Below are positions 1 to 32,101 of a stretch of 36,272 nucleotides of DNA, piece by piece. The stretch comes from an uncultured Caldilineaceae bacterium (GTDB lineage: Bacteria; Chloroflexota; Anaerolineae; 4572-78; J111), in the NCBI GenBank assembly GCA_964638395.1, contig CAZWZZ010000001.1, positions 17,450 to 53,721 of the forward strand. Direction: 5' to 3'. The notes beneath the pieces are model-generated. The model was not told the origin of the DNA. It did no database searches and was given only the letters and a program-made list of their open reading frames with translations. The translations under genes were made by a program, and so were the position numbers. Position 1 is the first letter of the stretch; each line of letters begins with the position of its first letter.

Positions 1-665
1 AATTCATCTTTTTCCACGTGGCTAAAGTGGCCGGTCTCAGCTTGCGACAGGCTCTCAAGCCGTACACGCAGGAACCGGCACAGTTCAAAATCAAGCGCCC
101 TCCCCGGCACAGAAACGGCCGGCTCAACCCGCTGTATGAAATGTGGGAGTCGGCGTTGACCCACGCTACCGCCGGGGACGCCCGAAAAGCGCTGAATGGG
201 ACGTTCGATCAGTTCTACAAATTTGCCTTTGTCCGTAATCCGTGGGAGTGGCAGGTGTCGATGTACCATTTTTTGCTGAGAGAGATTGGCAATCCCCGGT
301 ATGAACAGGTGAAAGCGATGTCCGGTTTTGAGGCGTATCTGGAGTGGGTCATCGCTGCCAAAAATCCTTACCCGAAAGGGGCCACCAAGCTCCAAAGCGA
401 GATGCTGACCGATGAGGCGGGCCGGATTCTGGTGGATTTCGTGGGCCGGTATGAAAATCTGACCGTTGATTTTGCGTATGTCTGCCGGGTCTTGAATATC
501 AAAGCGTCGTTGCCCCATCTCAACCAGACGAAGCATCGGGATTATCGCACTTATTACAATGCCCGCACCCGGCGCTTGGTAGCCGATTATTTCCGGGCCG
601 ACATCGAGTTGTTTGGATACAGATTTGAGGGCCTGGCCACCGGAGCAAACTATCATGTTAATTGA
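1..665 (+). CDS. Sulfotransferase (family-2-like), 5' end cut by the window edge
   Basis: Frame is open from nt 3: FIFFHVAKVAGLSL resembles the PAPS 5'-phosphosulfate-binding loop (FxHxPKxxGxS). RNPWEWQVSMYHF resembles the 3'-phosphate-binding RxPxxRxxS region. The GTG at 18 in the ORF track is probably internal. Confidence 0.6.
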   Translation, partial: FIFFHVAKVAGLSLRQALKPYTQEPAQFKIKRPPRHRNGRLNPLYEMWESALTHATAGDARKALNGTFDQFYKFAFVRNPWEWQVSMYHFLLREIGNPRYEQVKAMSGFEAYLEWVIAAKNPYPKGATKLQSEMLTDEAGRILVDFVGRYENLTVDFAYVCRVLNIKASLPHLNQTKHRDYRTYYNARTRRLVADYFRADIELFGYRFEGLATGANYHVN

Positions 666-2808
666 GTTGACTATCACCGGCGCCCTGGCTTATGCCGGTC
701 TAAAATCGTATCTCAATCATCAACGTAAACCAAAATTGGTACAGATCATCCAGCCACCCTCCAAACAAAAAGGGTGGATCGAGAAAACAGAACAGACATT
801 GGCCGGATTACTCCCGTTTCAAAATAAGCAGCGGCAACAGTTGCAGGTGATTTCTGAAGCCCCCCTCGAGGTCAGTGAGGCGGAACAGGTCATTAACCGG
901 GATCTGAAACTTTCGCTGGTCACGTTAGGTTTGACGACAGCCGGTTTCCTCTTCAACCCTTTGTTGACCTGGATCAGTGTCCCCGGCTTGATCTATCTCC
1001 AAATACCGTTCCTCAAAACCGGCTACCGCGAACTGATCCGGGAAAAACGGGTCGGGCAGGGCGTGCTTGATAGCACCATCACGGTTGTGTTGTTATGGTT
1101 ACGTTATTTTTGGCTAACAGCCTCATTTTTGACCTTGATGAACTTGAGCTTGAAGTTGATTTTGAAAACTCAAGACAAGTCACGCCAAAAATTGGTCAAC
1201 ATTTTGGGGGATATGCCTCAATTTGTATGGGTGCTGCGGGGTGAGGTCGAGGTTCAAATCCCGCTGGAAAAATTAACCGTTGGCGACGTGGTCGTGATTA
1301 ATCCGGGTGAAATGATCCCCATAGATGGGCGGGTGGCCGCGGGGGCCGGCAGCGTCAACCAACACCGCCTGACCGGGGAAGCCGGCCTGGTGGAAAAGGA
1401 GGTGGGCGACAGCGTCTTGGCCACAACGATTTTGTTGTCGGGCCGACTGTTCATCCGGGTCGAAAAGGCCGGTAGTGAAACCGTCGCGGCTCAAATCGGA
1501 CAGATTTTGAATCAAACCGCCGATTATAAAAGTACGCTGCAAACCCGGGGAGAAATGATTGCCGATAAGGGCGCGTTACCCACGCTGGCCCTGAGCGCCG
1601 TCACATTGCCCATACTGGGACCGGTGGGGGCGGCCACCATTTTACTGTCCTCATTTGGTTATAACATGCGTATCTTTGCGCCCATTAGCGTCCTCAACTT
1701 CCTACAGATAGCGGCTGACCATAGCATTTTGGTGAAGGATGGTCGGGCTTTGGAAACATTGCGGGCAGTCGATACCATCGTGTTCGACAAAACCGGAACC
1801 TTGACCGAAGAGCAGCCTTATGTGGCTGCTGTTCACGCCTGTAGCGCCTACAATGAAAAAATAATTTTACAATATGCCGCTTCCGCCGAATACCGGCAAA
1901 CCCACCCGATTGCTTTGGCTATTTTAGACAAAGCTGCCCGCGACCATCTTGATTTATTCCCCGTCACCGAGGCTAATTACGACGTGGGCTACGGCTTGAA
2001 AGTCAACGTTGCCGGTAAATTAGTCTGCCTCGGCAGCAAGCGCTTTCTGCAACGGGAAAATATGACGATTCCCGATAGCCTGCTCACTCGTCAAATGTAT
2101 TGTGATGAATGTGGGCATACCCTGGTCTATGTGGCGCTGGATCGTGTGGTCATTGGGGCGCTGGAACTGCATCCCACCATTCGCCCGGAGGTCAGGCAGG
2201 TGGTGCGTGAGTTGCAACGGCAGGGTCTAAACGTCTACATCATCTCCGGCGATCATGAAAAGCCCACCCAACATCTGGCCCACAAGTTGGGTATCTCCCA
2301 CTATTTTGCCGAGGTATTGCCGGACGATAAAGCCCGGCTGGTCAGAGAATTACAGGAGGTAGGCCGGACGGTTTGTTTTGTGGGCGATGGCATCAATGAC
2401 GCCATTGCCCTCAAACAGGCCAATGTTTCTGTCTCCTTGCGGGGTGCCGCCTCGGTGGCCATTGATACGGCTCAAGTGATTTTGATGAGCCAAAACTTGA
2501 GCCATTTGTTGACTCTCCTAAAGCTGGCCCAAAAACTGGATAAAAATATGACCACCAATTTATGGTTGACCCTTATCCCCGGCGTCGTATGTGTCGGCGG
2601 AGTCTACCTGGTGCATCTGGGCGTAGCCGCGGCGCAGATGTTATTTTATGGGGGGCTGGGAGCCGGCGTCGCCAATGGGATGATGCCCTTATTAGAACAT
2701 AAGTGGACAGGGGATCAGGATACGATCAATAATAAGCTGCTCTCAGGGATTTATGATGAAAAATATAGGGACAAGCGCATCTTGAACAACAACACTACAT
2801 CGGATTAG
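655..2808 (+). CDS. Divergent P1B-like P-type ATPase, paralogue 1 (intact, 717 aa from ATG 655)
   Basis: LTGEAGLVEK (TGE), DKTGTLT phosphorylation site, AEYRQTHPIA (P1B-type HP motif), ISGDHE, VLPDDK, GDGINDAIAL hinge. No CxxC/His-rich N-terminus. The segment aligned to the TM CPx motif reads SSFGYNMRIFAP. ATG 655 (MLIELTITGALAYAGLKSY) matches the paralogue N-termini and overlaps the upstream stop by 11 nt; the track start at 613 is less likely. Confidence 0.85.
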   Translation: MLIELTITGALAYAGLKSYLNHQRKPKLVQIIQPPSKQKGWIEKTEQTLAGLLPFQNKQRQQLQVISEAPLEVSEAEQVINRDLKLSLVTLGLTTAGFLFNPLLTWISVPGLIYLQIPFLKTGYRELIREKRVGQGVLDSTITVVLLWLRYFWLTASFLTLMNLSLKLILKTQDKSRQKLVNILGDMPQFVWVLRGEVEVQIPLEKLTVGDVVVINPGEMIPIDGRVAAGAGSVNQHRLTGEAGLVEKEVGDSVLATTILLSGRLFIRVEKAGSETVAAQIGQILNQTADYKSTLQTRGEMIADKGALPTLALSAVTLPILGPVGAATILLSSFGYNMRIFAPISVLNFLQIAADHSILVKDGRALETLRAVDTIVFDKTGTLTEEQPYVAAVHACSAYNEKIILQYAASAEYRQTHPIALAILDKAARDHLDLFPVTEANYDVGYGLKVNVAGKLVCLGSKRFLQRENMTIPDSLLTRQMYCDECGHTLVYVALDRVVIGALELHPTIRPEVRQVVRELQRQGLNVYIISGDHEKPTQHLAHKLGISHYFAEVLPDDKARLVRELQEVGRTVCFVGDGINDAIALKQANVSVSLRGAASVAIDTAQVILMSQNLSHLLTLLKLAQKLDKNMTTNLWLTLIPGVVCVGGVYLVHLGVAAAQMLFYGGLGAGVANGMMPLLEHKWTGDQDTINNKLLSGIYDEKYRDKRILNNNTTSD

Positions 2809-2884
2809 GAAAGGAGCGGATAGAAAAGAGAGAAAATCCGCTGTTTTCTAAATCCGTTGTAGTGCTTACGAAGGAGATGTTTTT

Positions 2885-4258
2885 ATGTGTTCAATTTCAG
2901 GTTTTATCATAACTAATCCCAGAGCAGACCGGCGGCAAATTGCTACGGTCTATCAAACGATTTTGGCCCGAGGCGCGGAACGGGGCAAAGATAGCGCCGG
3001 TATTTTGACCTTGAACGGGCAAGGTCGGGTCAAGCGGCACGTTGAAATCACGCCTCAGCGGTATGATTTTGTGCAATCGGTGGTCGCGGATGACTGTCAG
3101 GTCTTAATTGCCAACAATCGGGCCGAACCAACGACTGAGTTTGTCCGGCATAAAACAGACGCCGACGCTCAACCCTTTGGCAACGGGGTCGTCTTTATCA
3201 GCCACAATGGCACCATTGCCAACGACCACGATTTACGCCAACAATTCGACATTCAAGTTGAGACCTGCATCGACTCGGCCGTTTGCCCCGAAGTGATCTA
3301 TCAATTGGGCGTCCGGGATGGCCTGGATGCGCTCAAAGGTTCATTTGCCCTGGCCATTGTCGATAAACGCCACCCGCAAAAACTATGGTTGGCCCGCAAC
3401 TACAAACCTTTATTTCTACAAGCCCGGCCTGAACTGGGCGCGATCTTCTTTGCCTCCCAAGCCGACCATCTTAGCGCGTCGAACGGCCTCCTCAGCCAAC
3501 TCCGGCAGCCGGCGGTGGTCTCTATGCCGCCTTATACTCTGTTGGAGCTGGACGGTCAAACCGGCCACATCAAAGAAGAAGCCATTGTCCCCCGGATTCG
3601 CAACAAAAAAGCCCTGATTATTTGCAGCGGTGGGTTGGACAGCACCACCTCAGCCAAATGGGCCCAACTGGAAGGGTATGAGATCACCCTGTTGCATTTC
3701 CGGTATGGCTGTCGGGCCGAAACACGGGAAATGGACGCCATCCGTAACATTGCCGAGGCGCTGGGTTGCGAGTATCGCTTTGAAAGTTTGGATTGGCTCA
3801 AGCAGTTGGGCGGCTCATCATTAACCGACACTTCCAAGGAAATCACCCGTAATGAAGCCGGGGCCGAATTTGCCCATGAGTGGGTGCCGGCTCGTAATTT
3901 GATTATGACCTCCCTGGCGGCCGGCTTGTGTGACCGGTATGGGTATGACACCCTGATTTTAGGCTTAAACCTGGAAGAGGGGGGCGCTTTCCCTGATAAC
4001 ACGGTTGAGTTTTATCGCACGTTAGATCACGTGTTGGATATTGGCACAACGAGCCGCCCCCGCTTGCTCAGTCCCCTGGCCAATATGGTGAAACATGAGA
4101 TTGTTTCTCTGGCTGTAGAAATAGAAGCCCCTATTCACCTGTCGTGGTCCTGTTATCATGGCCGGCACTATCATTGTGGGCAATGTGGGCCGTGCTATAT
4201 GCGCCGGACCGCGTTTAAAATCATCAACCAGCCTGATCTTATTACGTATGAAAATTGA
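2885..4258 (+). CDS. gat-queC: Gat-QueC: class-II (Ntn) glutamine amidotransferase fused to a QueC-like PP-loop ATPase
   Basis: N-terminus MCSISG (catalytic Cys2) with AQPF...HNGTIANDHDL typical of class-II GATases. C-terminal half has the PP-loop ALIICSGGLDSTT and the QueC Zn cluster SCYHGRHYHCGQCGPCYMR. AAGGAG Shine-Dalgarno motif 7 nt upstream of the ATG. Confidence 0.85.
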   Translation: MCSISGFIITNPRADRRQIATVYQTILARGAERGKDSAGILTLNGQGRVKRHVEITPQRYDFVQSVVADDCQVLIANNRAEPTTEFVRHKTDADAQPFGNGVVFISHNGTIANDHDLRQQFDIQVETCIDSAVCPEVIYQLGVRDGLDALKGSFALAIVDKRHPQKLWLARNYKPLFLQARPELGAIFFASQADHLSASNGLLSQLRQPAVVSMPPYTLLELDGQTGHIKEEAIVPRIRNKKALIICSGGLDSTTSAKWAQLEGYEITLLHFRYGCRAETREMDAIRNIAEALGCEYRFESLDWLKQLGGSSLTDTSKEITRNEAGAEFAHEWVPARNLIMTSLAAGLCDRYGYDTLILGLNLEEGGAFPDNTVEFYRTLDHVLDIGTTSRPRLLSPLANMVKHEIVSLAVEIEAPIHLSWSCYHGRHYHCGQCGPCYMRRTAFKIINQPDLITYEN

Positions 4259-4269
4259 GGAGGCGTCGA

Positions 4270-4698
4270 ATGTATACGATTATCACCAAAATCAGTTATG
4301 AATATGCCCATCGTCTCATTCATCATCAAGGTAAATGTCGCCATGTGCATGGTCACAGCGGTGAGGCCACTATCGAACTGGCGGCCGAGTCGCTGAATGA
4401 CAACGGTTTTGTGATGGATTTCGGCGAGGTTAAAAGCCCCTTGAAAACGTGGCTCAATGAACATTGGGATCACGCCTACCTGGCCAATGAGCAGGACCCG
4501 TTGTTGCCGACTTTGCAGGCGCAGGGCATGAAAACCTTCATCTTTCCGGCTGAACCATCGGCGGAAGTGATGGCCAAATGTCTATTCGAGCAGGTCTCGA
4601 ATCTGGAGTTGCGGGCCGGAGTCAAGGTGGTGCGGGTGACGGTCCAAGAGACTTGTACCGGCTTGGCCGTGTACGAGCCAACAGGAGGTAGAAGTTAA
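4270..4698 (+). CDS. queD: 6-carboxy-5,6,7,8-tetrahydropterin synthase
   Basis: KCRHVHGHSGE matches the CxxxHGH motif of QueD/PTPS T-fold enzymes, and the ~140-aa size fits. GAGGAGG SD precedes ATG 4270; the track start at 4255 overlaps that SD and is unlikely. Confidence 0.85.
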   Translation: MYTIITKISYEYAHRLIHHQGKCRHVHGHSGEATIELAAESLNDNGFVMDFGEVKSPLKTWLNEHWDHAYLANEQDPLLPTLQAQGMKTFIFPAEPSAEVMAKCLFEQVSNLELRAGVKVVRVTVQETCTGLAVYEPTGGRS

Positions 4699-4701
4699 CC
4701 T

Positions 4702-5382
4702 ATGAAATATAGCGAAATCTTCTATACCCTACAAGGCGAAGGTAAATTGGTGGGCGTTCCGTCGGTCTTTTTTCGGACCAGCTATTGTAACCTGCGCTGC
4801 TGGTGGTGTGATACGCCTTATACCAGTTGGCAGCCCGAAAACAGGGACATCAGTGTGACCGACGCCTTTGCGGCGATTACCGAGTACCGGATCAAACATG
4901 TGGTCATTACCGGCGGGGAGCCGTTTATTCAGCCGGAGGCTTTAACCGAACTGTGTGACAAATTGGCCGACTATGGCTGCCACATAACCATCGAAACCAA
5001 TGCCACCATCTTTGCGCCGGTCAACGCGGATTTGATTTCGATGAGTCCCAAATTGGCCAACTCGACGCCTGAAAATGACCGGACTTGGACGGAACGGCAT
5101 GACCGGGAGCGCATTAAGGGAGATGTGATTTGTCAATTTTTGGATAGGTATGATTGTCAGGTCAAATTTGTGGTGGATAAGCCGGAGGATTTAGAAGAGA
5201 TCCAACAGTTGGTGAATGAGCTTAAGATCCCGCCTGAAACAGTGGTTTTGATGCCGCAAGGTCTTAAGCCGGAGGTTGTCAACCACAAAGAACAGTGGTT
5301 GGCTGAAATCTGTAAGGAGCAGGGATACCGCTACTCGCCGCGACTACATATCAATATTTGGGGGGATAAACGATGCACATGA
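4702..5382 (+). CDS. queE: 7-carboxy-7-deazaguanine synthase (radical SAM)
   Basis: EIFYTLQGEGKLVGVPSVFFRTSYCNLRCWWCDTPYT is the QueE N-terminal signature with its Cys cluster. Starts 4 nt after the queD stop. Confidence 0.85.
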   Translation: MKYSEIFYTLQGEGKLVGVPSVFFRTSYCNLRCWWCDTPYTSWQPENRDISVTDAFAAITEYRIKHVVITGGEPFIQPEALTELCDKLADYGCHITIETNATIFAPVNADLISMSPKLANSTPENDRTWTERHDRERIKGDVICQFLDRYDCQVKFVVDKPEDLEEIQQLVNELKIPPETVVLMPQGLKPEVVNHKEQWLAEICKEQGYRYSPRLHINIWGDKRCT

Positions 5383-5939
5383 AACCAAAACAATTTGATG
5401 GCGCCCTCATCGAGGAAGGCGTTAGCCTCATCTTAAAGGGCCTGGGCGAAGATTTGAACCGGGAAGGGTTACTCGACACCCCTAAACGGGTGGCCAAGAT
5501 GTATCGAGAAATATTTTGTGATAGTTCATTCAACGGTACGCAATTTTGCAATAGTGAGCAATACAACCAGATCGTTATGGTCCGCGATATTCCCTTTTAT
5601 TCGTTATGTGAACATCACATGTTGCCGTTTTTTGGCACAGCCACAGTTGGCTACATTCCCCAAAAAACGTACCTGGGGCTATCAAAATTAGCCCGGGTGG
5701 TTGATCTTTACAGCCGTCAACTGCAAGTACAGGAGCGCATGACGATGCAGATCGCCGATTGGTTGTGGGAACAGACGAACCCGGCCGGCGTTGGGGTTAT
5801 GGTCAAAGCCAGACATTTATGCATGGAGATGCGCGGCATTCAAAAGATTGGGAGTGAAACAGTCACTACCGCCACGTTGGGGGTATTTCGGACAGACAAG
5901 GAAATCGAAGATAGGTTTATGCGTTTCATAGGCGTATAG
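5373..5939 (+). CDS. folE: GTP cyclohydrolase I
   Basis: LLDTPKRVAKMY, SLCEHHMLPFFG, RQLQVQERMT and ARHLCMEMRG are classical FolE motifs. Overlaps the queE stop by 10 nt. Confidence 0.9.
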   Translation: MHMKPKQFDGALIEEGVSLILKGLGEDLNREGLLDTPKRVAKMYREIFCDSSFNGTQFCNSEQYNQIVMVRDIPFYSLCEHHMLPFFGTATVGYIPQKTYLGLSKLARVVDLYSRQLQVQERMTMQIADWLWEQTNPAGVGVMVKARHLCMEMRGIQKIGSETVTTATLGVFRTDKEIEDRFMRFIGV

Positions 5940-5953
5940 GTGAATGTTTCAAA

Positions 5954-7165
5954 ATGTTTCAACTCGAAATACAACCGCCCGCCGAAATGAATAGCTGGCT
6001 CGACTCTATCAGGGCCGACCTGGGCCACTGTGACCCCCTTGAGACCTTCCGTCGCCGCTGGCAGACGGCCCACGAGCGGTTTGGGCGAGACCCGGTCGGC
6101 GAGTTGGCCTACCGGGATGCCTGGCTCTATTTTCAGGAGAAGGTTCATCCTCTGGTGCGCCGCAAGCTGACGGCGGAGAGCGAAGGGCGTCAGGCCGCCC
6201 GGAAGATCGCGGCCATTTTTGAGCCGGATGCCCCGCCCCAACGGATCAACCGGCAGATGGTGGCTCACATGCGGCAACAGCGTTTAGAGCCAACAAGACC
6301 TGGCAGCTTTTTGAAACCGACCAGGTCGGACCGGCCTGATTTCGACCGGCCTATTTTTATCGTTTCCGCGCCGAGGGCGGGTAGCAGCCTGTTGTTTGAA
6401 ACGCTGGCCCGCTTTGCCGAGGTGTGGACGATTGGGCAGGAAAGCCACGACATCGAGGCCGACCTGCCGGCCCTCCATCCGGCCACCCACGCCTACGCCT
6501 CCAACCGCTTGACCGCCGCCGAGGCCACACCGGCGGTCAGGCAAGCGATGGGGGATTGGTTTGGCCGCCGCTTGCAGGATAGAGAGGGCCGGTTGTATCA
6601 GGCGCTCCCGGCGGAAAAACGGCCGGCGGCGGTTCGCTTTCTGGAAAAGACGCCCAAGAACGCCCTGCGGATCCCCTTCCTGAAAGCCATTTTCCCCGAT
6701 GCTCGCTTCATCTACTTATACCGGGAACCGCGCCAGAACATCAGCAGCATGTTGGAAGGCTGGCGATCCCGCCGCTTTGTGGCCTATCGAGGCCTCCCCG
6801 GCTGGCCCTACAAAGAGTGGAGTTTTCTATTGGTACCGGGCTGGGAGCAGTGGTTCGATAAACCGCTGGTGGAGATTGCGGCCTATCAATGGCAAATTAC
6901 CAACGAGACGATCCGGGCCGATTTGCAACCATTGCCGACGGATTGCTGGCATCGGGTCGATTATGAGGCGTTAATCAACCGCCCCGCCGAAACCATCAAA
7001 CGGATCAGTGATTTTGCAGCGTTTAGCTGGACGGCTGAGATCGCAGAGCGGCTGGCCCGGCCGTTGCCGGTGTCACACATGGCCGTCTCGCCTCCCGCGG
7101 CGGATAAGTGGCGGAAGTATGAGGCGGAGATCAAGTCCGTTCTGCCCGTGATAAACGTCCAATAG
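5954..7165 (+). CDS. Sulfotransferase (P-loop PAPS-binding type) with a ~130-aa N-terminal extension
   Basis: IFIVSAPRAGSSLLFETL (5'-PSB loop, PRxGS[ST]) and RFLEKTPKNALRIPFL are typical of bacterial Sulfotransfer_3-like enzymes. The first ~130 aa have no motif I recognise. Confidence 0.7.
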   Translation: MFQLEIQPPAEMNSWLDSIRADLGHCDPLETFRRRWQTAHERFGRDPVGELAYRDAWLYFQEKVHPLVRRKLTAESEGRQAARKIAAIFEPDAPPQRINRQMVAHMRQQRLEPTRPGSFLKPTRSDRPDFDRPIFIVSAPRAGSSLLFETLARFAEVWTIGQESHDIEADLPALHPATHAYASNRLTAAEATPAVRQAMGDWFGRRLQDREGRLYQALPAEKRPAAVRFLEKTPKNALRIPFLKAIFPDARFIYLYREPRQNISSMLEGWRSRRFVAYRGLPGWPYKEWSFLLVPGWEQWFDKPLVEIAAYQWQITNETIRADLQPLPTDCWHRVDYEALINRPAETIKRISDFAAFSWTAEIAERLARPLPVSHMAVSPPAADKWRKYEAEIKSVLPVINVQ

Positions 7166-7228
7166 GTAGCAAGGAGATCATAAAAATTATGGTAGCCATT
7201 GATAATTTTGCAACAACGGAGGTTTTAT

Positions 7229-10200
7229 ATGGACAAAGAATACGCCATAGCCCCAAAGCTTGATATTGACGGGGGCGCTTATGCTGAATTTTATGTGCTA
7301 CGAAAAAATGCCTCTACTATGACACAAGCCACCATTGAATGGTTTCATAATCATGTAGATGTTTGGTTGAGAGAGGTCACGCATGAAAATGAGAGCCACC
7401 TCCCGGCTATATTAAGCGTTGGCAGTGGGGAAGGCGACATAGATATCGAAATCATTAAGGCTATTCAGCCATACTTGGGTTCAAAAAAATTAAAATATGA
7501 TGCCCTTGAGCCTAATTTGCGCCATTATGAACGTTTCTTAGACAGGATAAATAGGATGCCGCTAGACGCATCCCTCAGTTTAGCCATCTATAATGTATAT
7601 TTTGATCAATTCAGCACCAATCAACAGTATGATGTCGTTTTGCTCATTCATGTCCTTTACTATTTTGATGATCCATATCAAGCCATCCGACAGGCTTTAA
7701 GATATACCAAACCAGGCGGACGAGTCGTTATTATTCACCAATCCTCTACGGGTATTCCTGAAATTCAACGTAAACATATGTATAAGCTAAAGAGCAACGT
7801 GGATGAGTTGTTTACCACCGATGATATCAAAAAATCACTTGATAATGGGGGTGAGCAATATCGTTTTTTTAACATTGATGCCCATTTAGAGGTCACGGAA
7901 TGTCTTAAACGGTCTGAAGTTGGGTTAAAAATAATGTCATTTTGTATGGAATGTGATTTGAGCCAAATTGATAAGTTAAGATTGAATCTTTTGGCTCAAT
8001 CTTTCTCTGACCTTGCGGTGAGTCGGGGCAATGGTAAGTCTTTTATTTATGAACCGCTCGGCGCGTTCATCGTTGATAATCCTAAAACAAAAAGATTGCC
8101 CCAGGATAGGGATTGTGTTGAAGATTATCGCCAACTAGCTCAAAAATTTGAATGGTCTAAAACATTTTTGGACAAAAAAAATTCAAATATCAGAGTCCTG
8201 GATGTGGGTTGTGGAACGGGGCGCTGGTTGCAGGCGTTCCTGATGTATGTGACCCCACAACTGCCCAATTTGGAGATACTGTACGATCTGGTAGACCCTT
8301 CCGAACAGGCTATGTCACAAGCTCTCGTTAAGATAGAGCATCCGCTAAAAATTGGTCACCAATATATAGATACTATTCAGCAAGCCAGGCTAGACCAAAG
8401 TCGTTATGATATTATTTGGTCGATGCATGCTTTCTATGCGATTCCCCGCCCTGACCTCCCTCACGTTTTAGGCAAAATATCTAACCACCTTAACGATCAG
8501 GGTCAGGCGTTTATCGCTCAAGCAACTAAAAAATCGTTTTATGTTCGATTTTACGATAAATTTCTTGAGACATTTCATTGCAACGAAGCTGGTTTTACGT
8601 CAGCAGAGGATATTGTGGCAGCCTTGAACATGCTTGGGCTGGAATATCAGGTGTACGCTATTTCTTATGATGAATGTATAGCTGAAGAGGACTTGATCGC
8701 CCTGGAACATTACATCATGAAAGAATCTGCCAGCAACTCTTTCAGATGGGAAGATGTCTCTGCCCAGGAAGCCAACAGAGAAGTCGGTCTACAAGATGTG
8801 CTGAATGATCCGAGTCTGGGGGCATACCTCCGTTCTTTTATAAAAGAGTCGATGTACTGTTTTACCCAAGAAATATGGCTCATATCGTTTGGGAAGAAAG
8901 AAAATGGGGCTAATCATTTTCATAACAATCATAAACAATCGTTTGATTACCTTGATAAAAATAAACAAAACAGTGTAGTTGACCCCTTGTTACCCGATGA
9001 GACGGAAATGCGTCAACTCGTTGACACAGCAATGAAATTTATCGTGCAGTGTCAGCTAGATACTGCTAAGTTTCCCCTCAATGGCTCTGGGTTTAAGTGG
9101 GTCCACACCGATGACTTCAATCGTGAGTATGAAGATATGCTTACGTTAGCCAAAACAGTTGAAGCGCCTCTACCTGAAGATGGCGAGCCTCATTTTGAAA
9201 AAATCTTGCACGATCTATTCTTTCGACTGACTCCCTACAGCACCAATGATAACAGCGGTGGATATCTGGCCTATGTGCCTGGTGGGGGGCTTTTTCATGC
9301 CGCTCTAGCCGACTTTATCTCCCTATCGCTCAACCGCTATGTGACAATGTTCATGGCCGCGCCGGGCTTGGCGGCCATTGAAGAGCAAGTTATCCGTTGG
9401 CTATGTGATATTGTGGGTTTTTCCAATGAGGCAGGGGGTGTCATTACCTCAGGCGGTTCTACAGCCACTTTTGTGGCTATCCATACCGCTCGGACTGACA
9501 AGCTATCCAACAAAGAATTGTTAAACGGGGTCGCCTATATGAGTGACCAGACTCACCTGTGCGTTGAGCAAGGACTGCATCTTTGTGGGTTTTCCAAACA
9601 GAATATACGTAAAATCCCCGTAGATAGTAACTTCCGTATCCGAACTGATCTCCTGGCACAAACCATTGAGCAAGATAGGGCGGCTGGCCTCCACCCCTTC
9701 TTGTTGGTTGCTAATGCGGGGACGGCCAATACCGGGGCCGTGGATAATTTACTACAAACTGCAAGAATTGCTAGAAACTATAACCTGTGGTTTCACGTTG
9801 ATGCTGCTTATGGTGGATTTTTTCTGTTGACCAAACAAGGGCAGACATTAATGAAGGGCATTGAGCAAGCTGACTCGCTTGTTCTTGATCCCCACAAATC
9901 TTTATTTTTGCCGTATGGCACAGGCGGGTTATTGGTCAACGACAAAACAAAACTGCTAAATGCCTTCACCTTTACCGGAAGTTATTTACCCCCTACTCAA
10001 AAACAGAAAGCAACTGATCCTCTGCTCGATGACATCATGAATCTTTCTCAAGAAGTAAGCAGAGATTTTAGAGGTTTTAGAATATGGTTGCCCTTAAAAA
10101 TGCTTGGCGTGAAGCCCTTCCGTGAGCAACTGGAAGAAAAGTTAAAACTGACTCGCTGGGTGACTGACCAGCTACAACAAATCCCCAATCTTCGGATTGT

Positions 10201-10480
10201 TGCGCCCCCACAACTTTCGGTGGTGACCTTTAAATTAGAGCCTACCGACTTTGATGTTTCTGACGAAGAACTGGATCAGCTTAATAAAAATTTCTTAGAT
10301 GCCATTAACCGGCGAGGGAATATTTTTCTTTCACCGTTTAAGTCCAAAGATAACGTCATCGGAGAATTTGCGCTACGCATGGCTATACTCTCCCATCGAA
10401 CAAAGCAGGAGCATCTCCGGCAAGGCGTCAGCGACATTCAATCAGCCGTAGAGGAAACATTATCGGGTTCGCAATGTTGA
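7229..10480 (+). CDS. Tri-domain protein: HNMT-like N-methyltransferase + class-I SAM methyltransferase + group-II PLP-dependent amino-acid decarboxylase
   Basis: Domain 1: ILSVGSGEGDIDIEII...LEPN...YDVVLLIHVLYYFDD (histamine-N-methyltransferase-like pattern). Domain 2: IRVLDVGCGTGRWL (motif I, nt ~8190-8230). Domain 3: HVDAAYGGF and LDPHKSLFLPYGTGG (PLP-Lys, nt ~9888) of DOPA/Tyr/His/DABA decarboxylases. ATG 7229 has an ACGGAGG SD; the track start at 7199 is TTG. Confidence 0.75.
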   Translation: MDKEYAIAPKLDIDGGAYAEFYVLRKNASTMTQATIEWFHNHVDVWLREVTHENESHLPAILSVGSGEGDIDIEIIKAIQPYLGSKKLKYDALEPNLRHYERFLDRINRMPLDASLSLAIYNVYFDQFSTNQQYDVVLLIHVLYYFDDPYQAIRQALRYTKPGGRVVIIHQSSTGIPEIQRKHMYKLKSNVDELFTTDDIKKSLDNGGEQYRFFNIDAHLEVTECLKRSEVGLKIMSFCMECDLSQIDKLRLNLLAQSFSDLAVSRGNGKSFIYEPLGAFIVDNPKTKRLPQDRDCVEDYRQLAQKFEWSKTFLDKKNSNIRVLDVGCGTGRWLQAFLMYVTPQLPNLEILYDLVDPSEQAMSQALVKIEHPLKIGHQYIDTIQQARLDQSRYDIIWSMHAFYAIPRPDLPHVLGKISNHLNDQGQAFIAQATKKSFYVRFYDKFLETFHCNEAGFTSAEDIVAALNMLGLEYQVYAISYDECIAEEDLIALEHYIMKESASNSFRWEDVSAQEANREVGLQDVLNDPSLGAYLRSFIKESMYCFTQEIWLISFGKKENGANHFHNNHKQSFDYLDKNKQNSVVDPLLPDETEMRQLVDTAMKFIVQCQLDTAKFPLNGSGFKWVHTDDFNREYEDMLTLAKTVEAPLPEDGEPHFEKILHDLFFRLTPYSTNDNSGGYLAYVPGGGLFHAALADFISLSLNRYVTMFMAAPGLAAIEEQVIRWLCDIVGFSNEAGGVITSGGSTATFVAIHTARTDKLSNKELLNGVAYMSDQTHLCVEQGLHLCGFSKQNIRKIPVDSNFRIRTDLLAQTIEQDRAAGLHPFLLVANAGTANTGAVDNLLQTARIARNYNLWFHVDAAYGGFFLLTKQGQTLMKGIEQADSLVLDPHKSLFLPYGTGGLLVNDKTKLLNAFTFTGSYLPPTQKQKATDPLLDDIMNLSQEVSRDFRGFRIWLPLKMLGVKPFREQLEEKLKLTRWVTDQLQQIPNLRIVAPPQLSVVTFKLEPTDFDVSDEELDQLNKNFLDAINRRGNIFLSPFKSKDNVIGEFALRMAILSHRTKQEHLRQGVSDIQSAVEETLSGSQC

Positions 10481-10504: not shown

Positions 10505-11871
10505 ATGGCTTTTACAGGCATTTTAGCGACCGGCGGCATCGTCTATGTTGGCCTAAAAACCTACCGGCGTCTGTCTAAAAAACAGAATTTATTATATCAG
10601 TCGTTAACAGAGGAAGAGGCTCAAACATCTCTGGCTACTTCTACCAGGCATACAATGGCCTCAGCAGAAATGAGTCAGGATCATGTAGACCCGCTTGCCC
10701 AACGGCGGGCAACCAACCATTACCTGGCGGCTTCTTCGGTTGGCCTGGGGTTGGCTCTGGTCGGGGCTGTTGGGTATCCTCTGGTCAGTCTGCTCAGCGT
10801 GCCGGTTTCGCTCTATGCGTATGGTGATATTTTGCGAGCCGGCTACCACGCTCTGTTCAAAGAACGACGTCTACGAGCCGCCGTGCTTGATTCTATCATC
10901 ACCTTTGGGTTAGTTATATCGGGCTACTACATCGCCACGGCTCTATCAAACTGCGTCTATTTCTTGGGAGTCCGGTTGTTGTTGCAAACTGAGGATGCCT
11001 CTCGCCAAAGCCTGACAAATTTATTTGGTGAACAACCACGCCTCGTCTGGCGACTCGTCGATGGCGCGGAAGTGGCCACCCCGTTTGAGGCGATTCAACG
11101 GGGCGATGTGGTCGTGGTTAATGCCGGGGAGATGATTCCGGTCGATGGCCGGATTGTGCAGGGTATCGCCTCGGTTGACCAGCAGAAATTGACGGGCGAA
11201 TCCCAACCCGTTGACAAAACGCCGGGAGACCACGTTTTGGCAGCGACGCTCGTTTTGGCCGGTCAACTCTATATCGAGGTGGAAAAGGCCGGGACGGAAA
11301 CCATTGCTGCTCAAATCGGCGAGATTTTAAGCCGCACCGCAGATTTCAAAGCAACCATCGAGGCCCGGAGCCAACAGATTGCTGACAAATCTGTTTTACC
11401 AACCCTTGGGGCCGGGCTGTTGGCCTTGTTGACCTTAAATCCCATTAAGGCCATAGCCACCATCTCCGCTAATTATTCGGAGATACTCCGCATCGCCGGG
11501 CCGTTGGGGATGTTGAATTTTCTGCACCTGGCGACCGAGAACGGTATCTTGGTTAAGGATGGTCGCTCCCTGGAACTACTCACCGAGATCGATACGGTGG
11601 TTTTTGACAAAACCGGGACATTGACGTTGGAGCAACCGTCGGTGGGCCAAATTCATTGCTGTGCTGACTTATCGGCCGATGAGGTGCTGGTCTATGCCGC
11701 CACCGCCGAATACCGGCAAACGCATCCCATCGCCAGGGCAATTCTACAGGCGGCGCCGGTGTGGCCAACGCCATGCTGCCTCGGCTAAACCGCCACCGGC
11801 TGCTGGCCGCGCCGGATAATTCTCAGCAAGTTTCACTTGTACCAAATAATGCGGAGAAAATCAAAATTTGA
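10505..11871 (+). pseudogene. P1B-like ATPase paralogue 2, internally deleted and frameshifted
   Basis: Collinear with paralogue 4 through TGES, DKTGTLT and AEYRQTHPIARAILQAA (nt ~11750). It then jumps out of frame to the last ~38 codons (AGVANAMLPRLNRHRLLAAPDNSQQVSLVPNNAEKIKI*, ending 11871). The hinge GDGINDA, ISGD and the C-terminal TMs are missing. The in-frame reading stops at 11788. Confidence 0.85.
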
Positions 11872-12042
11872 CCTCAACTCACACCAAAGAAATCGCCGTG
11901 ATTGGATTAGGCTGTCGATTTCCGGGTGGTGTGAAAGGGAGTTGCTAACTGTCGGAAAATTTCCGCTGTTGTGTACTACTGCTTATATATCAGGAAGAAA
12001 ACAAAATGAATGATGCAGTCCGCTTAGAAGATAATAAAATAA
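11794..12042 (+). repeat. 249-bp direct repeat, copy A (identical to 20201..20449)
   Basis: Base-by-base comparison of the two stretches shows no mismatch. The ~35 bp upstream are similar but not identical. Identity ends abruptly at 12042/20449. Confidence 0.95.
11868..11948 (+). pseudogene. Remnant of a type-I polyketide ketosynthase 5' end (copy A)
   Basis: TTG-initiated 26 codons (M)TSTHTKEIAVIGLGCRFPGGVKGSC*. EIAVIGLGCRFPGG matches the conserved N-terminal KS motif IAI[IV]G[ML][GS]CR[FL]PG[GA]. The TTG overlaps the ATPase stop (TTGA). Confidence 0.55.
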
Positions 12043-12830
12043 CCAGGCAACATTGGTGGACACGTGACGATTTACAATATAAAGATGGTCATCTCAACTT
12101 TGCCGGACAGGATATGGTGACGGTTGTCAACTCAACTGAAACGCCGGTCTATTTTTATAGTTCTGCCCGTGTTCAGCAGAATATCCAGCGCAAGTTAATG
12201 GCGATGGTCAAAGGGGATTTGCTTGAATGGGGGCCAGCTAATATTCAGTGTCGGGGGTTACAAGATGGCACGTTGAATCTGATATTACGGCATCGGTTTG
12301 AAATGGAGCTGGCCCAATATCAAACCAGCCCCGATTTACGGGTTAGCTTTCGGGAACAGATTGCCGAGCTACGGCAGGAGAACAACTCGTTGCGAGGTAA
12401 GTTGGCCCACGTAACGGGGAAGATGGCGGAGTACCAGCTGGCCAATGCGTTTCGCAGCCGGAAACGCTTTAAGCCGGTTGATTTTTTTGAATTTGCTTCT
12501 CCCTCTGAACCTGTCGAAACAAAACTGAATTTCCTTGATGTGCAGACACGGATTATCATCCAGCGGGCTGATGGTAAGCGGATGGAGTTAGATATCGTGG
12601 CCGAGTCGAGTGAGGGGCCGGTACTGCTGGTGGAAGTTCGCAAACGGCAGGTGAAATCGAATGGGAATGATGTGGCCGATTTTCAAGAAAAGGTGGCGGT
12701 TTATCAAACCTTGCATCCGGGTCGCATCGTGTTGGCGGGGTTTCTCTCCCTTGGTGGGTTTACTGAAGATGCCCGGCAGTTGTGTGAGCAGTCGGGTATT
12801 GGCTGGAGTGAAGAGTTGCGATATTTTTAA
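12006..12830 (+). CDS. Chimeric ORF: decarboxylase-like N-terminal ~65 aa joined to a PD-(D/E)xK nuclease-like (DUF234-like) C-terminal module
   Basis: ITRQHWWTRDDLQYKDGHLNFAGQDMVTVVNSTETPVYFYSSARVQQNIQRKL parallels ITLWWERSDLCYQENRLTFAGQDVAAIAQQSGIPTFLYNAHRVAHNLRRL of the next gene, but the PLP-binding barrel never follows. The C-terminus (ELDIVAESSEGPVLLVEVRKRQ...FLSLGGFTEDA) resembles the nuclease-fold tails of archaeal-type ATPases. Possibly non-functional. Confidence 0.45.
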   Translation: MNDAVRLEDNKITRQHWWTRDDLQYKDGHLNFAGQDMVTVVNSTETPVYFYSSARVQQNIQRKLMAMVKGDLLEWGPANIQCRGLQDGTLNLILRHRFEMELAQYQTSPDLRVSFREQIAELRQENNSLRGKLAHVTGKMAEYQLANAFRSRKRFKPVDFFEFASPSEPVETKLNFLDVQTRIIIQRADGKRMELDIVAESSEGPVLLVEVRKRQVKSNGNDVADFQEKVAVYQTLHPGRIVLAGFLSLGGFTEDARQLCEQSGIGWSEELRYF

Positions 12831-12867
12831 GTAGCTGAAACTACCGTTTTTGTTTAAGGAGATCAAT

Positions 12868-14592
12868 GTGATTGATTCACAAAGTTTTTATCCCATGCAG
12901 TACCATACTGCTTTGACTGATTACCCTCAAAAAGATGATTTTGAGTTGGCGAACATTGATGACAAATGTGGTTCAGGTATTGTTACTCGGCGGAGTTTCA
13001 AACAAGGGCAACTTGTAGCCCGAATCAGCGGTGACATTGTTTCTCAGGTAAAGTTACATACACTCCAGATTAGTCCGGCACAACATCTCTTTGACCCTTA
13101 TTTTAGTGGTTATTTACTTCATTCTTGTCGACCAAATGCCATTCTTGATATGCAGGCTTTAGAAATTTGGGCTTTACGAGATATTCAAGCTGGTGAATTG
13201 TTAACCATAGATTACACAATGACGGAAGATATACTATCGAGACAATTTTCCTGTTTGTGTGAATCGCCTCAATGTCGACTATGGATTACTGGTCGCAAAG
13301 AGATGATCAATGAAGCTGGTCGGCAATATCTTCAGATTAAGGATGAACCATTTAAGCCTCATCGTTTGCCCAACATAACGTTATGGTGGGAACGGTCTGA
13401 TTTATGTTATCAAGAAAACAGGCTGACCTTTGCTGGTCAGGATGTCGCCGCAATCGCCCAACAGAGTGGGATACCTACTTTTCTGTACAATGCTCACCGA
13501 GTAGCCCACAACTTGCGACGACTGACCGTGGCATTAGGGCAGGCAAACATTGTTCACAAAATATTTTATGCTATCAAAGCCAATCGGTTCATGCCGTTGT
13601 TGACCTATATTAAATCAACCCAATTGTGTGGTGTGGATGTTTGTTCGCCCCAGGAAATACAGTTGGCCTTGGCTTGTGGTTTTGAGGAGAAGGAGATTTC
13701 CTACACCGGTTGCTCCGTTTCTGACCAAGATATAGATATAATCTTGCGCTACCCAATGTTACTGATTAATTGTGATTCTTTAAGTATGATACGTCGAATT
13801 GGTGAACGGACTCCCGGACGGTCTATCGGTCTACGGATTAATCCGGCAATGGGCGTTGGCTATGGTGACAATGCATTGTTACAGTATAGTGGCTCTCAAA
13901 CCAGTAAATTTGGCATTTATCGAGAGCAGTTTGCAGAAGCATTGGCTTTGTGTCATCAATATGGTCTGCTTGTTGAGCGGATCCATTTTCATAGCGGTTG
14001 TGGATATCTCAATAATCAATTGGCGACTTGGGATAAAATCTTACACAATTGTCGCTGGTTTTTGGATCAAGTACCTAGTTTGAAAGCGATTAATATTGGC
14101 GGTGGTTTAGGTGTGCCCCATGTAAACAGTGACTCGCCACTCGACCTCTCAGCTTGGGTCGAGATTATTCAACGCAATTTTTCCTCCTACAAGGTTGAAA
14201 TTCAGGTCGAACCGGGCGATTACATCGTCAAAGATGCTGGAATGTTGGTTTTACAAATTAATATGGTGGAAAAGAAGCGAGACAAATGGTTTGTAGGGGT
14301 CAATGGTGGTTTTAATTTAGCCGTAGAACCGTTCTTTTATAACTTGCCTTGTGAACCAGCGGTCTGTGTTCTGGCAGATGACGCCGCTAAATCGCTTGCT
14401 CCGCAGAGTCTCAAGCCCGTAACAATTGCCGGGAATATCAACGAAGCATTGGATATTTGGTATGACAATTTCCCGCTCCCGCCTGTGAAAGAAGGCGATT
14501 ATCTGGCCTTTATTAACGCCGGAGGCTACGCTACTGCCATGAGTTCCAACCATTGTTTGCGAGGAACTTTCACAGAACAGTTGTTAGTTTAG
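12868..14592 (+). CDS. SET-domain methyltransferase fused to an Orn/DAP/Arg-family (fold-type III) PLP decarboxylase
   Basis: SET: CGSGIVTRRSFKQGQLVARISG, LLHSCRPNA (NHSCxPN), ELLTIDY, post-SET CLCESPQC. Decarboxylase: FYAIKANRF (PLP-Lys), HFHSGCGY, GGGLGVP, EPGDYIVKDAG, NAGGYATAMSSNHCLRG. GTG 12868 lies 6 nt after AAGGAG; ATG 12895 is an alternative start. Confidence 0.8.
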   Translation: MIDSQSFYPMQYHTALTDYPQKDDFELANIDDKCGSGIVTRRSFKQGQLVARISGDIVSQVKLHTLQISPAQHLFDPYFSGYLLHSCRPNAILDMQALEIWALRDIQAGELLTIDYTMTEDILSRQFSCLCESPQCRLWITGRKEMINEAGRQYLQIKDEPFKPHRLPNITLWWERSDLCYQENRLTFAGQDVAAIAQQSGIPTFLYNAHRVAHNLRRLTVALGQANIVHKIFYAIKANRFMPLLTYIKSTQLCGVDVCSPQEIQLALACGFEEKEISYTGCSVSDQDIDIILRYPMLLINCDSLSMIRRIGERTPGRSIGLRINPAMGVGYGDNALLQYSGSQTSKFGIYREQFAEALALCHQYGLLVERIHFHSGCGYLNNQLATWDKILHNCRWFLDQVPSLKAINIGGGLGVPHVNSDSPLDLSAWVEIIQRNFSSYKVEIQVEPGDYIVKDAGMLVLQINMVEKKRDKWFVGVNGGFNLAVEPFFYNLPCEPAVCVLADDAAKSLAPQSLKPVTIAGNINEALDIWYDNFPLPPVKEGDYLAFINAGGYATAMSSNHCLRGTFTEQLLV

Positions 14593-15257: not shown

Positions 15258-16526
15258 ATGCATGTAGAATCGACGGAACTGACGGTTCCAAAAGAAGAGT
15301 TGAACATTTCCACCCTCCATCATCGATTTATGGATAGTGATTATGTCCCTATTCGTTTTCTCTCAAGTACCCTGAATGAGTCAACGTGCTCTATTGAAGT
15401 AGATAGTATTTATCCAGAAAATTACACAAAATTAGATATAGACTCGATTTTCTCATTAAAAAAGAGGGGTGGTGAAAATACAGATGCTTTTACTGCCGTC
15501 CTCATTATTCCTACAGGGATTGATGCCCAAATAGGTGGACATTGCGGTGATGCTTCTGTCCTTGCTCGGTATATTGCCTCGGCGTGCGATACATTAATTA
15601 CACATCCAAATGTCGTTAACGCTGCAGACTTCAATGAATTAACAGACAATACGCTCTATGTTGAAGGTAGCACGATTACCCGCTTGCTTATGGGACAAAT
15701 CGGCTTAAAAAAAGTACGCGCTAATAGAATGTGCGTTATCATGGATACAAGTCCAGATCGCTATATTAATACAGAAATTGTGAATGCTGTCTCGACGGCT
15801 CGAATGACATTGGGGCTAGATTGTGATGTTTTAGAAATCCCGGATTTGGCTCGCTATACGACGCAGTATTCCAGTTCTGGAAGAGTCATTGGTCAGATTA
15901 CGAATCTGGAACATCTCTTTCACGCAATAGAGAAGGTACAAGACGATTATGACACATTTGCGCTAACATCGTTTATCAATGTCCCTGAAGGTCTAGAGAT
16001 TACCTATTTCAAAGATGACACTATTATTAATCCTTGGGGGGGCATCGAAGCCATGCTTACCCATGCCTGCGTTGAACATTTTAAGAAACCATTTGCACAT
16101 TCTCCGATGGGAACAGTAAAAGAAGTATATGACAAAATTAAAGAGGTAGGCATTATTGATCCCAGAAAAGCATCTGAAACCGCGTCCATCACCTATTTGA
16201 ATTGTATCTTAAAAGGGCTGTATCGAACTCCGAAAATTGTTTCGTATGAGGATGGACTCAATGTGTCTGATGTATCCTGTGTCATCATACCGGATCAGTG
16301 TGTCGGGTTACCGGTATTAGCCTGTATTGAGCAAGATATTCCGATTATTGCCGTGAAAAACACAAACATCATGCGAAATGATGTCACTCAACTTCCGTGT
16401 CCTCCCAGAAAGTTTTTTAGAGCGAATAACTATCTTGAGGCTGTTGGCATCATGAATTGTCTTAAAAGCGGTATCGCTATTGATACCATTCAACGCCCCA
16501 TACCTGCGACAACATATTTTACCTAG
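15258..16526 (+). CDS. Conserved hypothetical protein, DUF3326-like
   Basis: IIPTGIDAQIGGHCGDASVLARYIASACDTLITHPNVVNAA resembles the PTGIGAxIGGxAGDA...HPNV signature I associate with DUF3326 proteins (family name from memory). AAGGAG SD upstream. Confidence 0.4.
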   Translation: MHVESTELTVPKEELNISTLHHRFMDSDYVPIRFLSSTLNESTCSIEVDSIYPENYTKLDIDSIFSLKKRGGENTDAFTAVLIIPTGIDAQIGGHCGDASVLARYIASACDTLITHPNVVNAADFNELTDNTLYVEGSTITRLLMGQIGLKKVRANRMCVIMDTSPDRYINTEIVNAVSTARMTLGLDCDVLEIPDLARYTTQYSSSGRVIGQITNLEHLFHAIEKVQDDYDTFALTSFINVPEGLEITYFKDDTIINPWGGIEAMLTHACVEHFKKPFAHSPMGTVKEVYDKIKEVGIIDPRKASETASITYLNCILKGLYRTPKIVSYEDGLNVSDVSCVIIPDQCVGLPVLACIEQDIPIIAVKNTNIMRNDVTQLPCPPRKFFRANNYLEAVGIMNCLKSGIAIDTIQRPIPATTYFT

Positions 16527-18156: not shown

Positions 18157-18169
18157 TGTAATAGGACAC

Positions 18170-24038: not shown

Positions 24039-24900
24039 ATCGACGTTTCTGAACAGATATAGGAGAAGAAAAATCGTAGCCGCAAACAAACAACAGCTAA
24101 AATATGGTGCATTTTATATTCAGGACAACTTAGCTTGCTGGAATGGAGATCCGGACGTTCAGATAAAGCTAACCCAAAGCCCCTCAGTGAGCTGTCAATG
24201 GGAGGGGGTTTGGAACCCTTGTCACAGGCCATTACAAACAGAATATCGGGTTGCCATGAGTGGCCTTTGTATCTGGAGTAAATATGATTGTCTGTTACAG
24301 TTTAAGCCAAGAAGCAAAGGCAACCCGGGGGCCATACGCTCGTTGAGTAACCCGAAAGACCGGGCGGATTTGTTCAAACGATTGGAGAAAGGGTATGAAG
24401 TTGAACAGATTATTGTCGCCAATAATCCTTTCGGACTGTATCAGTCCAAATTAATTACCTGGCAAGCTGATACTGTACAACGATTTAAAATTAGCAAACT
24501 GTATTATACCCTGCCGATTGAAGAATATGCGGAGGTTATTAGGTTCTTTGAAAAATTTCTACCTCAACGGTTTGTCGAACAATTAGTTGAGATATTAAAT
24601 AGCCATCACGATCAATTAGAGGAAAAAATCCGTCGAGAAATGGAAGCCAACGTCTGCTTTGTCCATCCCCTCCGCTATGATAGTCAGTTGTCTGTCATAG
24701 AATCTTACACCTGGCCCTATCAAAATTTTGATGACATCGAGTTAGGCATCGAAGAGATGGAGGAAATACGGATTCCCTATCAGGTTCTACAAACCGGCTC
24801 AACCGTTCCGCCCATCTTGTTGGGGATGCTGGGGACACCCTGTCCTTATTATGTCCGCCGCAATCTGCACGAGGATGATTACATAAAAATTATTCCTTGA
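24007..24900 (+). CDS. Hypothetical protein (297 aa), no recognisable motif
   Basis: Long ORF in the same orientation. ATG 24007 overlaps the upstream gene by 32 nt, whereas the track start at 23914 would overlap by 125 nt. Confidence 0.5.
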   Translation: MIDTSSTKNRESTFLNRYRRRKIVAANKQQLKYGAFYIQDNLACWNGDPDVQIKLTQSPSVSCQWEGVWNPCHRPLQTEYRVAMSGLCIWSKYDCLLQFKPRSKGNPGAIRSLSNPKDRADLFKRLEKGYEVEQIIVANNPFGLYQSKLITWQADTVQRFKISKLYYTLPIEEYAEVIRFFEKFLPQRFVEQLVEILNSHHDQLEEKIRREMEANVCFVHPLRYDSQLSVIESYTWPYQNFDDIELGIEEMEEIRIPYQVLQTGSTVPPILLGMLGTPCPYYVRRNLHEDDYIKIIP

Positions 24901-31975: not shown

Positions 31976-32101
31976 CAGGCTGTGGCTCCAATGTCAAGCG
32001 AACATCTCAGGTTTCTGAATCACGCCGGTGAGAATGGACGTTTTTTGGACGTTTATAAGATACGTTGTGAGTATCATCAGATAGTTGATTCGAGGTTTAC
32101 C

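Follow-up and report, generated by a model that had tools for sequence, protein, structure and literature searches.

A bacterial Gat-QueC cassette beside a CPC-less P1B-like ATPase: a candidate source of a free 7-deazaguanine base

What use would an uncultured Caldilineaceae bacterium have for the 7-deazaguanine base that a compact four-gene cassette in its DNA is predicted to make? The cassette lies in a 36,272-nt stretch of the genome (hereafter the window; GCA_964638395.1, contig CAZWZZ010000001.1, positions 17,450 to 53,721). The original prediction, made from the letters of the DNA, had read it as queC-queD-queE-folE and had proposed that the free base is a metabolite building block, as in toyocamycin-type pathways, rather than a precursor of tRNA queuosine. 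Here we re-examined the four genes, compared their neighbourhood with related loci and searched for enzymes that would insert the base into nucleic acid. With middling confidence, and from sequence comparisons, we read the cassette as making a free 7-deazaguanine base for small-molecule use, with the adjacent ATPase as its membrane partner.

The first gene and the predicted chemistry

All coordinates follow the numbering of the window, in which the + strand is coding nearly throughout (listing of open reading frames, ORFs). About 10 kb upstream was read from contig JBUDQI010000009.1 (GCA_054920155.1, locus L092); a protein identical to the first gene product of the cassette is encoded there and on a sister contig. 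At 457 aa, this product is about twice as long as QueC. Its amidotransferase domain matched PF13537 (E 7e-16) as well as PF13522 and starts with MCSISGF, placing the catalytic Cys right after Met; its QueC domain matched PF06508 (E 2e-58) and scored 168 bits against TIGR00364 (cutoff 150). In an alignment of 29 clade members, Cys2, the N108-G109 oxyanion pair, D130, the SGGLDS PP-loop and C423/C431/C434/C437 were invariant, and SGGLDS and the four-Cys zinc site aligned with those of B. subtilis QueC (3bl5). Full-length identity was 40-44% to Sulfolobales/Thaumarchaeota proteins (~100% coverage) and 39% to phage proteins. By sequence, the first gene encodes a Gat-QueC fusion of the archaeosine type. 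The name queC thus gives way to gat-queC, whereas queD, queE and folE stand on Pfam, NCBIfam and PDB alignments.

In QueD, the CxxxHGH motif (CRHVHGH) aligned with the best PDB matches, E. coli QueD 4ntm/4ntk, and the score against TIGR03367 was 78 bits, under the cutoff of 89. For QueE, the five best NCBIfam matches were QueE models without exception (E 1e-27 to 7e-18), and none reached its equivalog cutoff; its PDB matches were exclusively QueE structures (6nhl, 5th5, 4njg), and the radical-SAM motif CxxxCxxC is intact (C29xxxC33xxC36). FolE passed its NCBIfam cutoffs (NF006826, 225 bits, cutoff 162). A pterin pathway was also considered and dropped, since the motif in QueD is of the QueD type and the cassette encodes QueE as well. 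The predicted four-gene layout with an 11-nt gap (gat-queC/queD), a 3-nt gap (queD/queE) and a 10-nt overlap (queE/folE) was confirmed from the ORFs and the junction sequence, and a sulfotransferase gene begins 14 nt after folE. Shine-Dalgarno-like motifs precede Gat-QueC, QueD, QueE and this sulfotransferase, and a G-run precedes FolE. The mechanical ORF of queD opens at TTG 4255, while the ATG at 4270 is the one that has a GGAGG ribosome-binding site. A scan of the whole window at Rfam gathering thresholds gave no match, preQ1 riboswitch included, and promoter and terminator scans stayed at chance level.

In the proposed pathway, FolE would convert GTP to dihydroneopterin triphosphate, from which QueD would make 6-carboxytetrahydropterin (CPH4) and QueE then 7-carboxy-7-deazaguanine (CDG). 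With ATP and glutamine-derived ammonia, Gat-QueC would turn CDG into the amide (ADG) and the nitrile (preQ0) and, by analogy with characterised Gat-QueC, onward into the amidine 7-formamidino-7-deazaguanine (archaeosine base). In phage 9g, Gat-QueC stands in place of QueC and leads to dG+ instead of dPreQ0 in DNA; it was functional in a delta-queC host, but gave no queuosine (Q) rescue in an E. coli queC mutant, G+ and not preQ0 being made (PMC6884629). Gat-QueC is one among three interchangeable archaeosine-forming enzyme types of Archaea. With the amidotransferase fused to QueC, expectation shifts away from preQ0 and closer to the amidine as the product, and, given the type of enzyme, the free base is probably the amidine. 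Rather than being inserted in tRNA or DNA, it would serve as a product or building block of a secondary-metabolite-like array, and the adjacent CPC-less P1B-like ATPase would handle it at the membrane. Our literature searches returned Gat-QueC in archaeal and phage contexts only.

These data bear on a rival explanation, in which the cassette supplies preQ0 for tRNA queuosine as a housekeeping function, the amidotransferase does no more than let QueC use glutamine in place of free ammonia (as in asparagine synthetase B), and the genes for QueF, Tgt, QueA and QueG lie at other sites. Such a role agrees with the scores of the QueC domain and of FolE, which exceed the TIGR00364 equivalog cutoff and the FolE cutoffs, respectively. 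We nevertheless consider it unlikely: QueD and QueE fall under every NCBIfam equivalog cutoff, the window holds no preQ1 riboswitch, and the phage 9g enzyme did not behave as a preQ0 supplier.

Bacterial Gat-QueC loci and the partner ATPase

We surveyed genome and metagenome collections and obtained 137 loci that encode a full-length Gat-QueC. Homologues fell into about 40 clusters (90%) at 49-81% identity to the window protein, an archaeal group at 40-44% and a phage group at ~39%; in a neighbour-joining tree, the window protein lay inside the bacterial clade (53-81% identity to it) with 100/100 bootstrap support. DpdA was beside Gat-QueC at none of nine distinct loci of the bacterial clade (up to +/-10 kb, several contigs being shorter), whereas it stood together with QueD/QueE/FolE at 31 phage-type loci (34-45% identity). 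Because the bacterial branch was never found beside a nucleic-acid-inserting enzyme, a free small molecule is the probable product.

Two loci, L094 and L006 (Gat-QueC 79% and 67% identical), form a subclade with the window. Common to all three are only Gat-QueC, QueD, QueE, FolE and an ATPase of one subfamily; the sulfotransferases, decarboxylases and methyltransferases differ among these de novo loci. The ATPase of L094 is 61% identical to that of the window and is found on both sides of the cassette, and that of L006 (45%) lies 5 kb downstream of it. One more ATPase homologue probably stands on the same 11.7-kb contig as a Gat-QueC fragment. A cassette amid transport and tailoring genes, with its ATPase link kept in both relatives, is a further argument against housekeeping supply for queuosine.

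Seven other clade loci (L008/L009, L010/L011, L013, L015, L061, L073, L101) have glycosyltransferases but no QueD/E/FolE. Their hosts are Ktedonobacteraceae, Anaerolineae, Bacteroidetes, Desulfuromonadaceae and Phycisphaerales, and the conserved set comprises three GT2 glycosyltransferases, an APH-type kinase, UbiA and B12/radical-SAM enzymes; immediately 3' of Gat-QueC, several of the loci have a gene with weak GT-A likeness. From its gene content, this set is apparently an undescribed deazaguanine salvage-and-glycosylation cluster. In four of the seven (L010, L013, L015, L101), the first or second gene after Gat-QueC encodes a YhhQ/Vut_1 preQ0-type importer, with 8-nt overlaps between these genes in L010. 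That an importer stands beside a sister Gat-QueC speaks for a free base as the substrate, and these loci are the strongest hint, by gene neighbourhood, that the clade acts on free bases. Their pairing with an importer and glycosyltransferases, not with Q genes, also speaks against the housekeeping explanation.

In L061 and L073 (10001-11417 each; Desulfuromonadaceae/Phycisphaerales), the amidotransferase and QueC halves are in separate ORFs, which overlap in L061. Identity is 32% for the amidotransferase half and 53-57% for the QueC half.

The ATPase shared by the three de novo loci departs from the heavy-metal pumps that it resembles. Aligned to CopA (3j08), the window protein has FGYNMRIFAPIS in place of the CPC region of transmembrane helix 4 (TM4), and FGYxMRxxAP(I/L)S replaces CPC in all sampled family members. 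Pfam detected no N-terminal HMA metal-binding domain, while the DKTGT, TGE and GDGINDA core motifs are kept; neither part of the heavy-metal P1B signature (TM4 CPC/SPC/CPH plus an HMA domain) is present in this neighbouring ATPase. The family counts 3,875 matches at E < 1e-30, with hosts that include Parabeggiatoa, Methylococcales, Entotheonella and Magnetomorum. Four further homologues had readable contigs: three, from unrelated genomes (L095, L179, L180), directly follow SLOG/LOG-like and PurA-like genes, and the fourth shows tandem ATPases only. Judged by its families, the SLOG/LOG-like and PurA-like pair is expected to release a modified free purine base, and the position of the ATPase after it suggests a link of the family to free modified purine bases.

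The window holds three full-length and two truncated ATPase paralogues (32-56% identity), of which all but the one beside the cassette adjoin decarboxylases; the truncated copy that closes the array is 44-56% identical to the full-length ones. A tentative extension, to which we give a low probability, is that CPC-less P1B-like ATPases, as a previously uncharacterised subfamily, pump cationic purine-like bases: the Gat-QueC branch would make the free, positively charged archaeosine base (or a close derivative) for secretion or compartmentalisation, the paralogues would export amines, and the pump would also serve the SLOG/LOG-PurA-like modules in other phyla. The repeated association with the cassette draws attention to an uncharacterised P-type ATPase family of thousands of members, which may move organic cations, not metals. 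As a separate observation, early stops in the ATPase ORFs 10505-11788 (427 aa) and 31982-32866 (294 aa) are signs of decay or rearrangement.

The surrounding array and the search for insertion enzymes

The cassette is part of a tight array (Table 1). In order, a nonribosomal peptide synthetase (NRPS) C-PCP fragment, an O-methyltransferase, a KS-AT-ACP-TE polyketide synthase (PKS), an NMT1/SsuA-like ABC transporter, a sulfotransferase and the ATPase precede it, and a second sulfotransferase, a methyltransferase-methyltransferase-decarboxylase fusion and a truncated ATPase follow. All genes of the array, NRPS fragment through truncated ATPase, run in one direction; several overlap, and no gap exceeds 76 nt apart from one of 108 nt in front of the upstream sulfotransferase. 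The part upstream of the window (L092 1-9216) is on the same strand, and its PKS has CurL-like features. Pfam agreed with the predicted flanks, namely an ATPase/sulfotransferase pair upstream and another sulfotransferase downstream. The upstream sulfotransferase gene is complete at L092:9325-10011 (228 aa) and overlaps the ATPase start by 11 nt; among solved structures, the downstream one comes closest to the CurM polyketide sulfotransferase (E 9e-5), and this weak likeness hints that it may act for the PKS and not for the deazaguanine. A sulfated deazaguanine product was tried and dropped, since neither sulfotransferase is kept alongside related cassettes and one of them is CurM-like.

Table 1 Features of the cassette and its neighbours in the window
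Feature	Position	Strand	Description
Sulfotransfer_2 sulfotransferase	18-665	+	PF03567 E 4.5e-10; 5' end cut by window edge
P1B-like P-type ATPase	655-2808	+	PF00122, PF00702; TIGR01525 390 bits; 717 aa
Hairpin	2808-2850	+	In 76-nt ATPase/gat-queC spacer, followed by UUUUCU; 35 nt before gat-queC
gat-queC	2885-4258	+	Class II glutamine amidotransferase (aa 1-~215) plus QueC (aa ~239-446); 457 aa
queD	4270-4698	+	6-carboxy-5,6,7,8-tetrahydropterin synthase; 142 aa; PF01242 E 3e-29
queE	4702-5382	+	7-carboxy-7-deazaguanine synthase; radical SAM PF04055; 226 aa
folE	5373-5939	+	GTP cyclohydrolase I type 1; 188 aa; PF01227 E 3e-67
Sulfotransfer_3 sulfotransferase	5954-7165	+	PF13469 E 1e-24; 403 aa
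Methyltransferase-methyltransferase-PLP (pyridoxal phosphate) decarboxylase fusion	7199-10480	+	PF13489 x2, PF00282 E 4e-62; 1093 aa; 33 nt after sulfotransferase
Truncated ATPase paralogue	10505-11788	+	427 aa; ends just past P-domain start; PF00122 and first 41 positions of PF00702
ATPase paralogues	655-2808, 10505-11788, 18137-20278, 20743-22914, 31982-32866		CPC-less P1B-like family

The decarboxylases of the window allow another use of the QueC domain, as an amide ligase of the kind associated with roseomycin A, which would join CDG to a decarboxylase-made amine and yield a peptidyl or alkylamido deazapurine. QueC homologues of roseomycin clusters couple CDG to L-lysine (preprint 10.64898/2026.04.15.718813), and three amino-acid decarboxylases are encoded downstream of the cassette. 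The intact Cys2, Asn-Gly and Asp of the fused amidotransferase, however, suggest that ammonia is the nucleophile, G+-forming Gat-QueC is homologous to the protein over its full length, and the decarboxylases are missing from L094 and L006 and differ strongly in GC content at third codon positions (GC3). We regard this use as highly unlikely.

No transglycosylase and no QueF was found near the cassette. Pfam searches found no QueF, TGT (PF01702) or DpdA in any substantial + strand ORF of the window, and the sole QueF-like signal was the expected T-fold echo in FolE. Further DpdA models were applied because Pfam misses genuine phage DpdA. Five unannotated window ORFs, one of which proved to be an Acg-family FMN oxidoreductase, gave no transglycosylase match with Pfam at E up to 10, with NCBIfam DpdA (NF041059) or with three PHROG DpdA families; of these families, phrog_887 recovered a phage DpdA as positive control (E 9e-100). 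A six-frame ORF search (phmmer) with E. coli Tgt and QueF, tblastn of phage DpdA against the window and the upstream contig, and a DpdA hidden Markov model (HMM) built from 33 loci and run on the window all gave nothing. Comparing every window protein with the DpdA profile and Tgt by hhalign gave probabilities below 4%, a result that excludes DpdA1-like proteins only, as the control (phage DpdA against Tgt) failed. PADLOC found no defence-system parts and no Dpd components beyond a generic QueC model; its matches were that model and a weak QatC on Gat-QueC, a pVip radical-SAM similarity on QueE and a marginal CARF on one unannotated ORF. The predicted lack of TGT, ArcTGT, DpdA and queF in the window was thus borne out, including by the six-frame search that the original prediction had proposed. 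A tgt or dpdA gene directly upstream of the window, which it had named as contrary evidence, was not detectable in the 10 kb upstream, and neither was QueF.

What this lack means is a different matter. Bacterial genomes usually carry tgt and queF apart from queCDE; E. coli K-12, for instance, has tgt next to queA and queF at a separate site. The lack of both genes in 36 kb is therefore a weak argument, and the common unlinked arrangement counts in favour of a housekeeping supply of preQ0. The proposal of a free base used as a metabolite instead of for tRNA queuosine keeps its direction on other grounds, namely the tight co-directional NRPS/PKS array and a clade whose sampled members never neighbour DpdA.

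Several points weigh against a free base and its coupling to the ATPase. The characterised Gat-QueC enzymes all serve modification of tRNA (Crenarchaeota) or DNA (phage 9g). Archaeal survey loci likewise lack a neighbouring transglycosylase, arcTGT being unlinked, so that a missing neighbour is not decisive. A very divergent transglycosylase would escape sequence methods, and the absence of transglycosylase and QueF covers the window and 10 kb upstream, not the whole genome. The sulfotransferases are conserved in neither L094 nor L006. The hairpin before gat-queC could separate the cassette from the ATPase transcriptionally: its minimum free energy is -22.2 kcal/mol (2806-2887; z -3.2), none of 200 shuffles was as stable, no Rfam family matched, and from its predicted fold it could act as a weak terminator or attenuator. 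GC3 of neighbouring genes ranges from 0.37 to 0.74 (cassette 0.56-0.61, upstream ATPase 0.61, downstream sulfotransferase 0.74), sharp shifts that mark the array as a mosaic, and adjacency may thus overstate functional unity.

The first three of these points also favour modification of nucleic acid, that is, archaeosine-type G+ or preQ0 placed in DNA or RNA by an unlinked or unrecognisably divergent transglycosylase, since a type that Pfam misses even in phages can hide. We still judge this improbable. DpdA is at none of the nine bacterial-clade loci and is present at the 31 phage-type ones; the unannotated ORFs were negative with NCBIfam, PHROG and custom HMM models of DpdA; phage genes are missing from the window, as are components of Dpd or any other defence system; and the neighbours encode NRPS/PKS proteins, sulfotransferases, decarboxylases and transporters. 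The preferred reading remains that of a free base, and the bacterial clade makes testable whether Gat-QueC acts on a free base or on nucleic acid.

Further genes of the window were noted alongside. An amine-forming module (7199-10480, 12850-14592, 15258-16526, 16666-18156) has a GC3 of 0.37-0.43 that contrasts with its neighbours and encodes the methyltransferase-methyltransferase-PLP decarboxylase, a SET-domain-diaminopimelate (DAP)/ornithine decarboxylase fusion, a DUF3326 protein and an Orn/Lys/Arg decarboxylase. Before the SET-decarboxylase, a 274-aa ORF (12006-12830) has an N-terminus like a decarboxylase start (NF052544, E 7e-4), which is counted with the shortened ATPase ORFs among the signs of decay or rearrangement. 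An Acg-family FMN-binding oxidoreductase (22911-24038, 375 aa; NF047509, E 6e-31) overlaps by 125 nt, as called, with a 328-aa ORF without family match (23914-24900), which probably begins further downstream than called. Within a 1213-aa protein (25042-28683), SBP_bac_8/SBP_bac_1 solute-binding domains occur as a fused triplet; an MscS-type channel is encoded 3' of it (28831-30156). A 756-aa protein (33931-36201) combines a transmembrane start, a long pentapeptide-repeat region and a PstS-like periplasmic binding domain (PBP_like_2).

Comparison with known deazaguanine systems

The B. subtilis queCDEF operon has the same C-D-E order and the same chemistry up to CDG, and the earlier remark that FolE occupies the QueF slot is one with which we agree. 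The window differs from that operon in having FolE in the place of QueF, an amidotransferase on QueC, no preQ1 riboswitch and non-housekeeping flanks. The bacterial Dpd island (DpdA-K) resembles it in keeping a dedicated copy of the preQ0 pathway outside tRNA metabolism, but DpdA, DpdB, DpdC and the helicase components have no counterpart in the window.

The closest enzymes are those of the Gat-QueC archaeosine pathway of Crenarchaeota and phage 9g (Queuovirinae), with the same fusion at 39-44% full-length identity and the same FolE/QueD/QueE; phage Quinobequin-P09 even has QueE-GatQueC-QueD-FolE in one block. In phages, however, DpdA comes directly after the cassette (L096:9791-10729, phrog_887 E 9e-100), whereas none is detectable in the window. 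Phage cassettes lie amid replication genes, whereas that of the window lies amid transport and secondary-metabolism genes and belongs to a separate bacterial clade.

The toyocamycin analogy of the original prediction did not hold for the tailoring genes that define such clusters. By Pfam, the ORFs of the window encode no phosphoribosyltransferase (PF00156), GMP reductase, adenylosuccinate lyase/synthetase or glycosyltransferase, and the first three were likewise missing from the 10 kb upstream; moreover, the window has Gat-QueC instead of QueC, and its host is a member of Chloroflexota, not an actinomycete. The named homologues of its ParA protein likewise all come from Chloroflexota (Anaerolineae and relatives, 56-62% identity). 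A 2026 preprint that mined ~2 million genomes reports 933 candidate deazapurine clusters, ~70% of them from Streptomyces, under the rule of a dedicated deazaguanine set in a biosynthetic cluster lacking nucleic-acid insertion enzymes; amidotransferase fusions, sulfotransferases and P-type ATPases are not mentioned there. Should the cassette yield a free or tailored archaeosine base, the secondary metabolism of deazapurines would extend beyond actinomycete nucleosides to Chloroflexota-like bacteria and to amidine chemistry. What the window does share with the toyocamycin/sangivamycin, tubercidin and huimycin clusters is their organisation, a dedicated FolE/QueD/QueE(/QueC) set that stands without nucleic-acid insertion enzymes.

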